From the IMG/VR virus record IMGVR_UViG_3300017991_002758, positions 35,602-99,601 of that record: 64,000 bases of DNA, one strand, 5' to 3'. The DNA comes from a virus. The notes under the pieces were generated by a model that worked only from the letters and a program-made list of their open reading frames with translations, ran no database searches and was not told the origin of the DNA. Both the position numbers and the translations under genes were made by a program. Below are positions 31,962 to 37,709 of this stretch, one piece after another; within the stretch, counting starts at the first letter, position 1, and every line of letters begins with the position of its first letter.

Positions 31962-32060
31962 AAGGTTTTTAACCTGTATAAAAAAAATGTTATTTAGTAA
32001 AAAAATATTTTACAAGGGTTAAAAAATGAGGTAAGAATATATCGTTATGAATTATTATAA
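31962..32060 (+). promoter_or_regulatory. AT-rich promoter/operator, copy 2
   Basis: GTAAAAAAATATTTTACAAGGGTTAAAAAA, with an upstream AGGTT-TTT-AACCT dyad. Confidence 0.6.
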
Positions 32061-32142
32061 CAAAACAAAAAACGCAGACGGCCGGGACGGAAGCCCGGCA
32101 ACAACCAACGCAGGCCAACCCTGCAAGAAAAAGGAGACAGCT

Positions 32143-33735
32143 ATGACAAACCAGACAGAGAACACCAGGCCCGAGAGCAAGACCGACATCGTTGAGATCA
32201 TGATGGCCATCGCCCGAGTGATCTACAAGGACAGCATGGCCCACCCCAAAACCCGGAAGGTGGCCCGGAATTTCCTGAAGCGCAAACGCGATCAGCGCGA
32301 GAGCGTGGCGCCGAAATTTTTGGCCGAGATGATTGAGGCCTACGGCCTGGCGAAAGACGCGACACCGTTTCACCTGATGGCCGCGATAACCAACGAAGAG
32401 CCGAAGCCCGAGCCCAAACCCGCACCGGACCACGAGAAAGCATCGAAAAAGGCGAGAGCAGCCAAGAAAGCCGAGCCGAAGCCGGCCGAAGAGCCCAAGG
32501 CGAAGAAGCAGGCAGAGAAAAAAGCCCAGGCGCCAGCGCCGAAGGCGGAGGAGCCGAAGGCGGAGGAGCCCGGTAGCGACGAGCCGGTTCCGACTTTTTG
32601 CGAGGAGCTGGGCATAACGCCGGCGACGGTGGCCAAACCCCAAGCGACGATCAGAGTGAAGTCCGTTGCCGAAGCCATCGCTCAAGCCGAAGGCAAGCAC
32701 CTTGGAGATCTGTGCGGCTGGTCGATAGCAGGATCGCGACCGAAGGCCCAGGTTGAGGCAGCCGCGCTGAAGCACGGCCTGGTGGACGACCTGGCGCTGC
32801 CGAGGCTCACGCCCAACGCCTGTTACCGAAAAGCGATCAGCGAGGTTTTCAACCGAGGCGGCAAGAACGAGCGCAAGTGGATCGCGGTCCTGGTCGAGGA
32901 CAGCGCCGAGAAGATCGTTCACTCCATTGTGGCGCGCGAAGTTGTGGACGACGAGAACGACGCGGTTTCCAGCAAGGACGCAGCGTTCAAGACCGAGATC
33001 AAGGTCGGCTTCGACAAGGAAGCCTACCGAAACGGCGCCAGCGCCGCCGGCTGTTTCGTGACCGAGGACTTCAGCCACCCGGCCGCGATCAAGTTCAAGG
33101 ACACGTACCTGGAACTGGCGGAAACCTACCTGGCCTACGACATTCGCAACAGCTTTCAGCAGGCCTTCAGGAGCTGGTCGGCCTGTCCGCTGCTCCCCCA
33201 CGGTGGCCTGTGGTACATCCCTTCGGTTTTCGCCGACAAGGTACGCGCCTGGAACGACTTCATGATCGACCTGGGCATGACCACGGTTGTCATCCCGGCG
33301 TTCGACACCAAAGAGACCATCGAGTCCTTGAAGGCCGCCACGCGCAACGGCCTGGAAGCCCAGCTCGCCTCGGTGCTCGAGCTTCTGGATTTCTACTCGC
33401 AACAGGGATGGAGCCGAATACGCACCAACACCTTGGAGACGAGAGTGGCGGAATTCGAGGAGCTGAGAAACAAGGCCGAGCTTTACACCAACATTCTCGG
33501 CACCTTCACCGACGACCTGACCAGCAAGGTTAAAATGGCAGCCGACCGCTTGACCGCGGACATAACGACCCGGCGCGAGCAAGAGGAGCGCGAGGCCAAG
33601 GAGGCCGCCGAGCAGAAGGAGGCCGCGAAGAAGGCAAAAGCCGAGGAGAGGGCCGCAGCTAGGAAGGCCAAGAAAGAGGCCGAGACAGAGACGGACGACG
33701 CCGGCCAGACCGACGGGAAAGCGAGGGTAGCGTAA
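32143..33735 (+). CDS. Unknown protein with a Lys/Ala/Glu/Pro linker and a DUF6744/DUF3150-like core, likely partner of the AAA-vWA pair
   Basis: GG.W.IP and ELRNKAELY..ILG recalled from that family type (unverified); SD AAGGAG. Confidence 0.55.
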   Translation: MTNQTENTRPESKTDIVEIMMAIARVIYKDSMAHPKTRKVARNFLKRKRDQRESVAPKFLAEMIEAYGLAKDATPFHLMAAITNEEPKPEPKPAPDHEKASKKARAAKKAEPKPAEEPKAKKQAEKKAQAPAPKAEEPKAEEPGSDEPVPTFCEELGITPATVAKPQATIRVKSVAEAIAQAEGKHLGDLCGWSIAGSRPKAQVEAAALKHGLVDDLALPRLTPNACYRKAISEVFNRGGKNERKWIAVLVEDSAEKIVHSIVAREVVDDENDAVSSKDAAFKTEIKVGFDKEAYRNGASAAGCFVTEDFSHPAAIKFKDTYLELAETYLAYDIRNSFQQAFRSWSACPLLPHGGLWYIPSVFADKVRAWNDFMIDLGMTTVVIPAFDTKETIESLKAATRNGLEAQLASVLELLDFYSQQGWSRIRTNTLETRVAEFEELRNKAELYTNILGTFTDDLTSKVKMAADRLTADITTRREQEEREAKEAAEQKEAAKKAKAEERAAARKAKKEAETETDDAGQTDGKARVA

Positions 33736-33792
33736 CCCGCTGATGAGCCCTGGGCACAGGGCGAAACCGGGCTCCGGCCCGGTCCGGGATGC
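33730..33792 (+). ncRNA. Type I hammerhead ribozyme
   Basis: cccg CTGATGA gccctg-ggca-cagggc GAAA ccgggc-tccg-gcccgg TC cggg; all core nucleotides and three stems present. Confidence 0.93.
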
Positions 33793-33826
33793 AATAAAGC
33801 ACCCATAAAAACAGGAGGCACCCCAG

Positions 33827-35227
33827 ATGACAAAAAAAGAGAAGATGGAAAAAACAATGATGGCGCTGGCCGACGTAGTCGTCAACGAGGAACAGTTTCC
33901 TGCCGTGAAGCTACTCAAGGAGCTTCAGCTCAAGGAGCTGGTCAAGGAGTACGGGAAGGTGACCAAGCGCGATGAGCTGGCCCAGCGCCGGAAGGACGCG
34001 GAGAAGGAGCGCAAGGCGGAGACAGCAAACAGGTTGAAGGCGGCCGAGCAAGTCGCTGACACGGACGCCAAGGGCCTCTCCAAGAGGCTGAGCAAACTGC
34101 GCCGGGAGATGAAGGCGCGCTTCATCGAAAGAGGGCCGCTGGTGGACGGTGCGCTGACCGCTACCATCGCCAACGACCACCTGCTCATGTTGGGCCCTCC
34201 GGGTACCGCGAAAACGGATTTCGCTGAGATGCTCGCCGAGTGCTTGGGCCGAACTTATTTCAGCCACCAGGTGGCGAAGGACACCACACCGGAGGAGATC
34301 CTGGGCATGTTCAGCGCAACGGCCATGATCGAAGAGGATGAGTACAGGCGAAACACCGAAGGCGTCGCACCGCAGATGGAAGTGTGGTTCTTGGATGAGA
34401 TTTTCAAGTCGAGCAGCGCGCTGCTCAACGCCTTCTTGCGCGGCATGGAACAGCGGATAATGAGGAACGGCCCGGAGGTGGTTGAGCTTCCGCTCGAGTC
34501 GGTTTTCGCTGCTTCCAACGAGTACCCGGAGGACAAGGATCTGGACGCACTCTACGACAGGTTCGCGATGAAATTCTGGCTGGACTACATTGGCGACCAG
34601 GATAAGCTCGAAAAGCTTATCGCAAACGGCGCTCCGAAAGTTACCGCGAGATTGAACCGCGAGGATCTGGACGCGCTCCGCATACTCTCGCAACGGGTGG
34701 CCTGGGGCAAAGACGAGGCCTCCATCCTGATGAAGATCAAGCGAGCAGTTGAGGAAGTCGGGTTCATTGCCAGCGACCGAACATGGATAGGCAAGGCGCC
34801 GAAGTTGGTAAAGGCACGCGCCGCAATGAACGGCCGCGATTACATTACCACAAGCGACTGGCTGGTTCTGGTTGATGCCCTCTGGAAAAAGCACACTGAT
34901 CGTCCTGCTCTACTGAAAGCCGTTGGCAACGCAGCGGACCCCTACGGCGCCAGAGCAACAAGCATCATCGACGGCGTGAGGATCGCGATGAGGGAAATGC
35001 CGACGTTGGACGATGTGAAAGCCGGGACGCTCACCAAGGCGGCCGCGATGAAGAAAATGGGCGAGGTCAACGCACAGCTTGCCGGCCGGCGCGACGCCAT
35101 CATGGAGGTTCAGGAAAAGGCAGCGGACAACGAGGCGGTCAAAGAGGCGGTCGAAGCAGTGGACGCGGCATTGAACAAACTGACGGCAGTGGGCCGCGAG
35201 ATCACCATGTACAGGCCGGTGGTTTAG
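33827..35227 (+). CDS. MoxR-family AAA+ ATPase (RavA-like)
   Basis: Walker A GPPGTAKT, Walker B FLDEIFK, ASNE.P, ALYDRF, sensor-2 SDR.W. Confidence 0.9.
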   Translation: MTKKEKMEKTMMALADVVVNEEQFPAVKLLKELQLKELVKEYGKVTKRDELAQRRKDAEKERKAETANRLKAAEQVADTDAKGLSKRLSKLRREMKARFIERGPLVDGALTATIANDHLLMLGPPGTAKTDFAEMLAECLGRTYFSHQVAKDTTPEEILGMFSATAMIEEDEYRRNTEGVAPQMEVWFLDEIFKSSSALLNAFLRGMEQRIMRNGPEVVELPLESVFAASNEYPEDKDLDALYDRFAMKFWLDYIGDQDKLEKLIANGAPKVTARLNREDLDALRILSQRVAWGKDEASILMKIKRAVEEVGFIASDRTWIGKAPKLVKARAAMNGRDYITTSDWLVLVDALWKKHTDRPALLKAVGNAADPYGARATSIIDGVRIAMREMPTLDDVKAGTLTKAAAMKKMGEVNAQLAGRRDAIMEVQEKAADNEAVKEAVEAVDAALNKLTAVGREITMYRPVV

Positions 35228-35233
35228 GAGGGC

Positions 35234-36700
35234 ATGATGACTGGACTCATCTACAACGCAAGCGACTTTCAGCGCCATCTCTGGGACGACCATAAGATGG
35301 CTGACGAGGCCGCAGACGGGGCAGAAAAAGTCGCGGCGAAAAGGTACGAGGCGTTCCCGGAATTCGCCGGCGAGATGTTTCACTACTTTCACGCTGAAGA
35401 ACCAGAGACCCTGGAAGAGCCGGCCTCGGGCAGCGAGGTTTTTCAGAAGCTGGACGCAGCCATGAGACAAGTTCCCGAGGTTGAGGATCTTCGGGCCCAG
35501 ACCATTGGCAACGACCGCTGGGCCGGCGTCGTCACCGCAAGCATGATTGATACCTTGCTGCACAAGGTGCCAGCGCCAGATAAAAAGGTAGAGGATGTAC
35601 GAAACGACGAAGACGCCATTGAGTATTTAGAGAGGCTGCTCGAGCAGGCGGAAGAGGACGGCGACAGTGAACAGGCCGCGGGAATTGAAGAGGCGCTCAA
35701 CGAGCTGATAGACGGCCTGGAGGAGAAGCGGGATGCAGCGGAAGCCGCAGCCGACCAGATGGACCCGACCGACGTGAGACAGGCCATTCGCAAAGCGGTT
35801 AAACAGGCGTCCAAGGATATCGAAGACGCACAGGCCATGCTTGACGCTTTTGGCATTGGCACCGATCAGCACTCAGGGCGAAAGGCTCAGATGGCGACCG
35901 GCGCGAAACTGGCCAAGCTTGTTCAGGGCAACGACCGACTCAGGCGCATCGCGGAATTCGCCGGCCGCCTTCGCAGGATCGCAAACGAGGAACAGCGCAA
36001 GAAGCCACGCTTCGGTTGCGGCGAGCGCGTTGGGCGGAAACCCGACAACGATCTGGCCAAGCTCTGCCACCGAGAGCTGATTTACGGAGCCGAGCCCTTG
36101 CGTCACATCTTCGGTATGAAGTACGCCGACCGCTCGCTCGTGTGCGTCGAAAAGGCCGACCGGAAGAAGCAACAGAAAGGTCCGGTGGTCATGGTTCTGG
36201 ACAGTAGCGGATCAATGAGTACCGGCGACGCCGATGTTTGGGCAGCCGCTGTTTGCTTGGCGTACATGGACGTGGCCCGGCAGCAGAACCGCGACTTTGC
36301 GATAGTTCATTTCGGCTCTGCTGTTTTGAGGATCGACAAGTTTGTGGGCAAGGATTCGATGACGCCGGAGGCAATAACCGAGGCGGTCAACTTTTTCGCC
36401 GCCGATGGCGGAACCAATTTTGAGGATAGCCTAATGGCAGCGGTGAAGATAATCCGGGAGACCGGCGAATTCAAGAACGCGGACATCGTGATGGTAACCG
36501 ACGGTTGCGCCAGCGTGAGCAACGCTTGGCTCGATTCGTATGAACAGGCCAAGGCCGAGCTGGACTTCAGTTGCTATTCGGTGCTGGTTGGATCCTACTG
36601 CAAAGGCGAAGTAAACGAGAAGTTCAGCGACGAAGTTGAGCACCTGGCCAATGCGATCAGGGATGAAGAGCAAATGCATCACCTGTTTGGGAAGGTTTGA
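35234..36700 (+). CDS. vWA-domain protein (ViaA-like)
   Basis: KGP...LDSSGSM MIDAS, GGTNF, ADIVMVTDG. Confidence 0.9.
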   Translation: MMTGLIYNASDFQRHLWDDHKMADEAADGAEKVAAKRYEAFPEFAGEMFHYFHAEEPETLEEPASGSEVFQKLDAAMRQVPEVEDLRAQTIGNDRWAGVVTASMIDTLLHKVPAPDKKVEDVRNDEDAIEYLERLLEQAEEDGDSEQAAGIEEALNELIDGLEEKRDAAEAAADQMDPTDVRQAIRKAVKQASKDIEDAQAMLDAFGIGTDQHSGRKAQMATGAKLAKLVQGNDRLRRIAEFAGRLRRIANEEQRKKPRFGCGERVGRKPDNDLAKLCHRELIYGAEPLRHIFGMKYADRSLVCVEKADRKKQQKGPVVMVLDSSGSMSTGDADVWAAAVCLAYMDVARQQNRDFAIVHFGSAVLRIDKFVGKDSMTPEAITEAVNFFAADGGTNFEDSLMAAVKIIRETGEFKNADIVMVTDGCASVSNAWLDSYEQAKAELDFSCYSVLVGSYCKGEVNEKFSDEVEHLANAIRDEEQMHHLFGKV

Positions 36701-36703
36701 GAA

Positions 36704-37045
36704 ATGGCGAAGAAAAAGTTACCACCAATTGACCAATTCGCTGTCGGCAATGAAGTGACCCACATGGTGGCGCTCGCCGACCTCGTCATCGATAACCAAA
36801 TTACCGCCAAAGACGGCGCAAAGCGGATCAGTAAATCGTTCGACCGGCTCCATGAGGTCGTGATGAAAGGAGGTCAGATAGATCGGGACGAGGCCGCACA
36901 GGTTATTTACGCTCTGGCCACAGGGCTCAAGGGAGCGGTCCTGGCCCTGGGTAAAAAAGGCCCGGTCATGGTCCGATACATCGACGGAGAGGCTCTAGTA
37001 ACTCTGCTCATGCCCGACGGCCCACCGCCGGGTATGGGCGGATAA
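36704..37045 (+). CDS. Hypothetical protein, probably co-transcribed with AAA-vWA
   Basis: Starts 3 nt after the vWA stop. Confidence 0.55.
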   Translation: MAKKKLPPIDQFAVGNEVTHMVALADLVIDNQITAKDGAKRISKSFDRLHEVVMKGGQIDRDEAAQVIYALATGLKGAVLALGKKGPVMVRYIDGEALVTLLMPDGPPPGMGG

Positions 37046-37054
37046 ACAGGCCTC

Positions 37055-37151
37055 AGCTCGGGCTACCTAGCAGGCTCCTGAGTCCCCTTTTACCGGCAGG
37101 GGTGCCCTTTGTAGGAGAGCCGGCTCAGGAGCCTACTCGGAGGCCCGAGCT
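37055..37151 (+). other. Long imperfect intergenic inverted repeat / RNA hairpin
   Basis: 30-nt arms with 5 differences, plus inner stems. Confidence 0.8.
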
Positions 37152-37214
37152 AAACGAGAACGAACTTTAAGAAGGAATCGACCGTTCGCGCGGTCAATAA
37201 AGAAAGGATCTGTT

Positions 37215-37709
37215 ATGAGTGAAACACAATTCTTCCAAACTGTAATGGGTAATAGGTTCTACGAGGGAACCATGCCGGCGCTGGTCAAGGCCGTTACCAG
37301 GGTGGCGGATCGGCTGGAAGCTCTAAACCCACCCGAGCCGGCCGAGGACGCCTCCGAGGGCGCCGCCGGCGACGACCCGGCCATCCGGGCAGGGAAGCTG
37401 ATAAACAAGCTGAGAGCCGTAGTACGCAGCACGTACGCTGACCTCGTGGACACCAGCGGACGACAGGAGGCGGAGGCCTGGATAGCCCTTGTCCATGCCC
37501 GGCTGAATGAGGCTCTGGGCCTACCGGCCGAAAACGCCGGCGAAGCGGTGAAGGTTCTCGCTGTTCGCCGTGGGTTTAAAAAGGCAGCTCATCTTGCGGA
37601 ACATTTTTTCGATGACGGCCTGGATGTTTCGACAACAAGTCAGCGAGCAACACTCGATTCGTTTGCTTTTTATCTGGCTCAGCACGCTGAAACCTACGCC
37701 GGCGAATAG
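37215..37709 (+). CDS. Hypothetical protein
   Basis: FFQT.MG.RFYEGTMP.LV N-terminus; SD AAGGA. Confidence 0.6.
   Translation: MSETQFFQTVMGNRFYEGTMPALVKAVTRVADRLEALNPPEPAEDASEGAAGDDPAIRAGKLINKLRAVVRSTYADLVDTSGRQEAEAWIALVHARLNEALGLPAENAGEAVKVLAVRRGFKKAAHLAEHFFDDGLDVSTTSQRATLDSFAFYLAQHAETYAGE

Follow-up and report, generated by a model that had tools for sequence, protein, structure and literature searches.

The junction between the DUF6744 gene and the ATPase gene of this phage most likely holds a functional, pseudoknot-stabilised type I hammerhead ribozyme (33736-33792), which would cut the polycistronic mRNA by itself between the DUF6744 gene and the ATPase-vWA genes. The sequence analysed, called the window here, is a stretch of 64,000 nt from an IMG/VR virus record; the record is 99,601 bp long and rated complete by CheckV. 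All genes of the window lie on the plus strand, the sizeable ORFs at about 55% G+C. Genes for tape measure, tail and baseplate proteins are found upstream of the locus, and RecE/RecT-like, DnaD-like, DnaB-like and endolysin-like genes downstream of it. The upstream cistron (32047..33735, plus strand) encodes a 562-aa DUF6744 protein (Pfam DUF6744, E 5e-11) with syntenic homologues in seven relatives. The downstream cistron (33827..35227, plus strand) encodes a 466-aa MoxR-type AAA+ ATPase (Pfam bpMoxR, E 4e-43; PHROG 19600, E 6e-62), and the Shine-Dalgarno sequence AGGAGG (33813..33818, plus strand) ends 8 nt before its ATG. The co-directional partner of the ATPase is a vWA-domain protein (35234..36700, plus strand; Pfam VWA_2 and VWA_3), which is also syntenic in the relatives. 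Promoter-like and terminator-like sites round the junction were no commoner than chance, which, together with the uniform gene orientation, fits co-transcription across it. A tRNA search of the phage sequence found none. Farther downstream, after the small ORF that follows the vWA gene, there is a long near-perfect hairpin (37045-37155); folding of the surrounding 37040-37215 gives -78.6 kcal/mol (z -4.4), and no U-tract is present. This hairpin and the hammerhead would bracket an ATPase-vWA-orf113 RNA.

The first-pass annotation had identified the element as a type I hammerhead, complete and lying between phage genes, and its coordinates were all correct when 33730-33800 was read again; core, fold, chance test and family covariation all speak for this assignment. 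All elements lie on the plus strand. The stop codon of the DUF6744 gene (TAA, 33733-35) stands directly against stem I with a gap of 0 nt. The 5' strand of stem I, CCCG (33736-39), pairs with CGGG (33785-88), and in 88 other, distinct phage hammerheads the corresponding pairs covary. The catalytic core strand CUGAUGA (33740-46) supplies C3, U4, G5, A6, N7, G8 and A9 in exact consensus. It is followed by the stem II hairpin (33747-62), in which GCCCUG (33747-52) and CAGGGC (33757-62) form 6 bp, including G10.1-C11.1, round the loop GGCA (33753-56). GAAA (33763-66) comes next, with G12, A13 and A14 at 33763-65, again in exact consensus, and its last base forms the 15.1-16.1 pair A33766-U33783. 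This pair closes the stem III hairpin (33766-83), which has six further G-C-rich pairs between CCGGGC (33767-72) and GCCCGG (33777-82) and the loop UCCG; both hairpins are borne out by the fold and by family covariation. The nucleotide after U16.1 is C33784, an H17 (not G), and the hammerhead consensus places the predicted scissile bond between C17 (33784) and C1.1 (33785). The 3' strand of stem I would then become the 5'-OH end of the downstream RNA, and the ATPase ATG at 33827 lies 42 nt after the predicted cut, as the annotation had it. There is no mispair beside the core, where G33747-C33762 (10.1-11.1), C33785-G33739 (1.1-2.1) and A33766-U33783 are standard. Three helices surround the core, of which stems II and III are closed by loops and stem I is open, so that "type I" is the correct label. 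An intrinsic terminator was also considered at this site and rejected, as no U-tract follows either hairpin and no terminator was called there.

Folding of 33726-33796 with RNAfold gave the hammerhead three-way junction as both the minimum free energy (MFE) and the centroid structure (-35.4 kcal/mol, z -2.7), and none of 200 shuffled versions was equally stable. In a 221-nt context the MFE structure pairs the upstream coding sequence with a strand of stem III and breaks stems I and III, and correct folding would therefore depend on the order of transcription or on ribosomes over the coding region. After cleavage, the 5' end of the downstream RNA may form a small hairpin (33786-33804, plus strand; GGG.UGC / GCACCC, loop AAUAAA) of 6 bp, seen in the fold of 33785-33860, which reuses the stem I strand and the bases of the pseudoknot tail. 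Among the subclass members described below, comparable 5' hairpins occur in L011, L033 and L035 and none was seen in L017, L098 and L062; the signal across the family is weak (MFE -5.9 vs -4.7 kcal/mol in mononucleotide shuffles).

The element has many counterparts in other phages. The pattern of its stem I and core, with 25 specified bases, gave 57 matches in 42 viral loci, for which the chance expectation is estimated to be below 1. The 45 unique copies in this set have invariant cores, and their stems II and III vary in sequence yet stay paired, with compensatory changes at seven pairs and almost none broken. A second, independent pattern, in which only the core and a GGCR loop II were fixed, and a covariance model trained on the first set together returned 101 further matches. 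In the 88 distinct copies among these, 98.2% of cells were standard pairs, as compared to 30-48% (about 35%) with slid partners; 12 of the 14 pairs had changed on both sides, and all three helices covaried, including stem I. The combined set used for the counts below comprised 151 unique copies. Such conserved pairing under sequence change argues that the window's element is one of a large family of phage type I hammerheads maintained by selection. Several of the 42 loci carry two to four copies. On four contigs (L040:5979-8752, L076:11649-13166, L006:1888-6200 and L043:237-2829), three or four family hammerheads are packed into 1.5-4.3 kb, with one at each gene junction; by contrast, there is a single copy in the window's phage.

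The sequence after stem I is where our reading departs from the annotation, which had extended stem I by pairing GCGU (33730-33) with AUGC (33789-92) round an AA bulge. GCGU and AUGC can indeed pair in this sequence, and do so in the MFE fold of 33726-33796, but the pairing is no feature of the family: upstream-to-tail extensions of at least 4 bp were found in 6.6% of the 151 copies and in 6.9% with permuted tails. The extension was accordingly rejected as a conserved feature. The tail more likely pairs with loop II as a pseudoknot, as judged from how well loop II of the 151 copies can pair with the 9 nt that follow stem I. At least 3 bp could be formed with the hammerhead's own 3' tail in 77% of copies and at least 4 bp in 36%; the corresponding values were 41% and 9% for shuffled tails, 48% and 12% for reversed tails, and 40% and 5% for the 5' flank. 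Enrichment between loop II and tail was in the same direction in the first set of 45 unique copies. The window's ribozyme falls within a subclass of 30 unique copies, here called GGCR/AYGC and defined in the present analysis from sequence only, in which stem I is always 4 bp and stem II 6-7 bp, a single A serves as the linker in 29 of the 30, loop II contains GGCR and the tail reads YGC. The loop R and the tail Y form G-C in 15 copies, G-U in ten and A-U in five, and never the mismatch A-C. In the window, the linker A33789 is followed by UGC (33790-92), the proposed partner of GCA in loop II, and three pairs are possible: G33754-C33792, C33755-G33791 and A33756-U33790. The GCGU/AUGC pairing and this pseudoknot are mutually exclusive. 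Pseudoknots between stems I and II are known in all three hammerhead types, and are present in about 40% of hammerhead representatives; mutations have shown that fast cleavage depends on them (PMC3088659).

The annotation had also placed the stop codon within stem I and suggested that terminating ribosomes could gate folding. Only with the extended GCGU/AUGC stem would the stop codon fall within stem I; what stands is that TAA abuts the 4-bp stem I. This arrangement is general among related phage hammerheads. In 141 of the 151 family members an upstream ORF on the same strand, 60 codons or longer, ends nearby, and in these 141 the stop codon is 0-3 nt before stem I in 45% and inside the ribozyme in 38%, mostly at the first UGA of CUGAUGA. 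Either position applies to 83% of the 141 (38/42 in a separate count). The start codon, with a Shine-Dalgarno sequence, is usually 21-54 nt after the cut, and the 5' side is thus more tightly packed against its stop codon than the 3' side against its start codon. These observations have been weighed for a translation-gated ribozyme, in which a ribosome terminating at UAA (33733-35) would cover stem I and the core, and cleavage would take place only between or after rounds of translation; in a variant, GCGU may withhold the AUGC tail from loop II until its pairing with the tail is melted by a ribosome. The adjacency in the window and in the family, the tighter 5' side, the mutual exclusion of the two tail pairings and the misfolding with upstream coding RNA in the 221-nt context, where ribosome traffic could matter, are all in keeping with gating. 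The adjacency is, however, equally explained by compaction, by the need for a cut message to retain its stop codon, which must then precede the cleavage site, or by a possible sequence preference (RA) just 5' of stem I. Stop codons counted within the core may in part be artefactual, because any frame in that register ends at the UGA of CUGAUGA, and upstream-to-tail pairing is at the control level. Gating is on balance unlikely, and if it were true, cleavage of the ATPase-vWA message would be coupled to translation of the upstream gene. As a compact, single-copy case, this locus is well suited for asking whether the widespread stop-codon adjacency functions at all.

For the favoured reading, a pseudoknot-stabilised hammerhead that processes the polycistronic message, the following sequence of events is proposed. 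The ribozyme would be transcribed within a long plus-strand polycistronic RNA and would fold into the three-way junction during transcription, as soon as the 3' strand of stem I and the AUGC tail have been made. The UGC of the tail (33790-92) would dock on GCA of loop II (33754-56), and the RNA would cut itself after C33784. The upstream product would be an mRNA with its stop codon intact, bearing two G-C-rich hairpins and a 2',3'-cyclic phosphate at its 3' end. The downstream product would be the ATPase-vWA mRNA. It would start with a 5'-OH at C33785, and AGGAGG would lie in its A/C-rich leader of 42 nt, the first 20 nt of which may refold into the small terminal hairpin mentioned above. The stability and expression of the DUF6744 gene would in this way be uncoupled from those of the MoxR-vWA genes. 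The direction of the stability change on either half depends on the host RNases, which differ in how they handle a 5'-OH. Phage and prophage hammerheads that flank genes have been published, and cleavage has been shown for several of them (PMC3088659); bacterial and phage hammerheads probably process polycistronic RNAs, a role that has been proposed and is unproven (PMC6765202).

The relatives of the locus offer a comparison for this proposal. Seven viral or metagenomic relatives have the block of DUF6744, ATPase, vWA and small ORF in synteny, with 42-70% protein identity. None of the seven carries a hammerhead, which weighs against the proposal, and the covariation described above is a property of the family, the syntenic relatives having no copy to compare. 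The junction in five of the seven is a spacer of 177-399 nt, and that of the window has 91 nt, filled by the ribozyme and the Shine-Dalgarno leader. Strong promoter-like sites are found in three of the seven hammerhead-less relatives: the sigma-70-like sites TTGACA-16-TATTAT (L047:2881-2908, 11/12 matches) and TTGACC-16-TATTAT (L046:2847-2874, 10/12 matches) are both just upstream of the ATPase gene, and L045 is near-identical to L046 at this site. In L161 and L044 a simple scan of the plus strand found nothing promoter-like. The ATPase-vWA genes of some relatives may start a transcription unit of their own, and a spacer with its own promoter may reach the same uncoupling; here, we infer, the ribozyme-filled junction would create the boundary post-transcriptionally. 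The ribozyme would be either a lineage-specific gain or an element lost in the relatives.

The proteins on both sides of the junction differ from those of the relatives as well. Residues 1-85 of the ATPase (33827-34080) are not common to the seven syntenic relatives, in which matches begin at residues 59-87, and the K/E/A-rich tail made up of about the last 50 residues of the DUF6744 protein (33580-33735) is not found in them, with matches ending near residue 510. About 500 nt round the ribozyme are therefore lineage-specific with respect to these relatives. The full length of the ATPase is covered by only a few database proteins (P0002, P0003, P0019 and P0021), of which P0002 (75% identity) and P0003 (67%) are its closest relatives and have the same N-terminal extension. 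A scan of viral contigs with the single ATPase protein gave no match, an alignment-based scan gave 14 loci at no more than 63% identity, and a metagenome scan gave three loci at no more than 64%; identity to GenBank phages was at most 34%. The genome scan returned only cellular MoxR homologues at 29-40%, mostly from Sporosarcina, and hence gave no clue to the host.

The Rfam check suggested in the first-pass annotation did not return the element: at the gathering score there was nothing in the window nor in the remaining 36 kb of the genome. The Hammerhead_1 model (RF00163) aligned end to end on a 301-nt slice with 23.7 bits (E 0.0013), as compared to the cut-off of 34, which for a window of 64 kb would be weak evidence by itself. 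A long stem III, together with the dominance of other lineages in the model, accounts for a score below the cut-off. Rfam 15, run at its gathering score, was blind to clear type I hammerheads with consensus cores in all 12 phage loci that were checked (L008, L011, L014, L017, L018, L032, L098, L071, L033, L035, L062 and L082), and the sub-threshold score is thus a weakness of the model and not counterevidence. The gathering score is a curation threshold rather than a biological feature, and it is insensitive here; the GGCR/AYGC phage subclass seems to be invisible to routine Rfam annotation.

This bears on whether the sequence could be an inactive or relic hammerhead-like element, with no appreciable cleavage in vivo and serving at most as a stable pair of intercistronic hairpins. 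Such a relic would accord with the low Rfam score, with a single copy missing from all syntenic relatives, with a tertiary contact of just 3 bp, and with the competing folds in the 221-nt context and at the 5' end of the cleaved RNA. Core changes would, however, be expected in a decaying relic, and each core position is at consensus, with standard pairs beside it. The stem lengths, linker and tail match exactly those of the 30-member subclass, which is maintained by covariation, and Rfam likewise misses the clear hammerheads of the 12 related loci. We regard the relic reading as very unlikely.

The hammerhead at 33736-33788 looks genuine by each testable sequence criterion, and its occurrence by chance was assessed with a strict type I descriptor that demands the core, GAA, the A-U closing pair, H17, and stems of at least 4, 3 and 3 bp. 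The descriptor matched once in the whole 99.6-kb phage genome, at 33736-33788, with stems of 4, 6 and 6(+1) bp, and had no match when the genome was shuffled 300 times with a first-order Markov model; a relaxed descriptor gave 0.03 matches per shuffled genome. Neither the descriptor, nor Rfam, nor the family covariance model found another hammerhead in the genome. A chance resemblance in a pair of G+C-rich intergenic hairpins, for example an ordinary terminator or stabiliser, has a negligible probability: the region is 65% G+C and two hairpins are unremarkable by themselves, but about 14 conserved unpaired core bases are correctly placed, the flanking tail motif is common to dozens of phage hammerheads, both signs of a terminator are absent, and the shuffled genomes were empty of matches.

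Thousands of hammerheads are already known, and this kind of element is known from phages, so the locus adds one more example of modest weight. Its interest lies elsewhere. At its cut-off, the type I model of Rfam overlooks this whole subclass of phage hammerheads, and routine annotation therefore under-counts phage ribozymes. The same four-gene block in seven ribozyme-less relatives, some of them with a promoter-like spacer, makes a clean natural comparison, which bears on the idea that self-cleavage substitutes for a transcription-unit boundary.

Among known systems, the glmS ribozyme is a self-cleaving RNA in a bacterial mRNA leader, and its cut leaves a 5'-OH on the coding RNA and changes the fate of that RNA; glmS is activated by a metabolite and triggers decay by RNase J1. 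The window's ribozyme is like glmS in that, as predicted here, it would cleave itself and leave the downstream coding RNA with a 5'-OH. It differs in that glmS has its own fold, metabolite activation and the RNase J1 decay route, and the window implies no ligand or decay pathway. The closest counterparts are the type I phage and prophage hammerheads described by Perreault et al. in 2011 (PMC3088659; Rfam clan CL00010, RF00163), which have the same core and open-stem-I junction, lie between co-directional phage genes as in the window, and were proposed to process polycistronic RNA. The published ones are clustered and flank single genes or short blocks, whereas the window's ribozyme is solitary and stands between large genes (562 and 466 aa). 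As to the tertiary contact, the published pseudoknots that were tested have 4-6 bp (PMC3088659), and that predicted in the window has 3 bp, GCA with UGC, drawn from a nominal GGCA tetraloop. The window's element nevertheless resembles the pseudoknot-stabilised hammerheads of Perreault et al. both in the predicted Watson-Crick contact, by which the loop of stem I or II pairs with a tail beyond the other, and in its constrained lengths, with a stem I of 4 bp, a linker A and a stem II of 6-7 bp.
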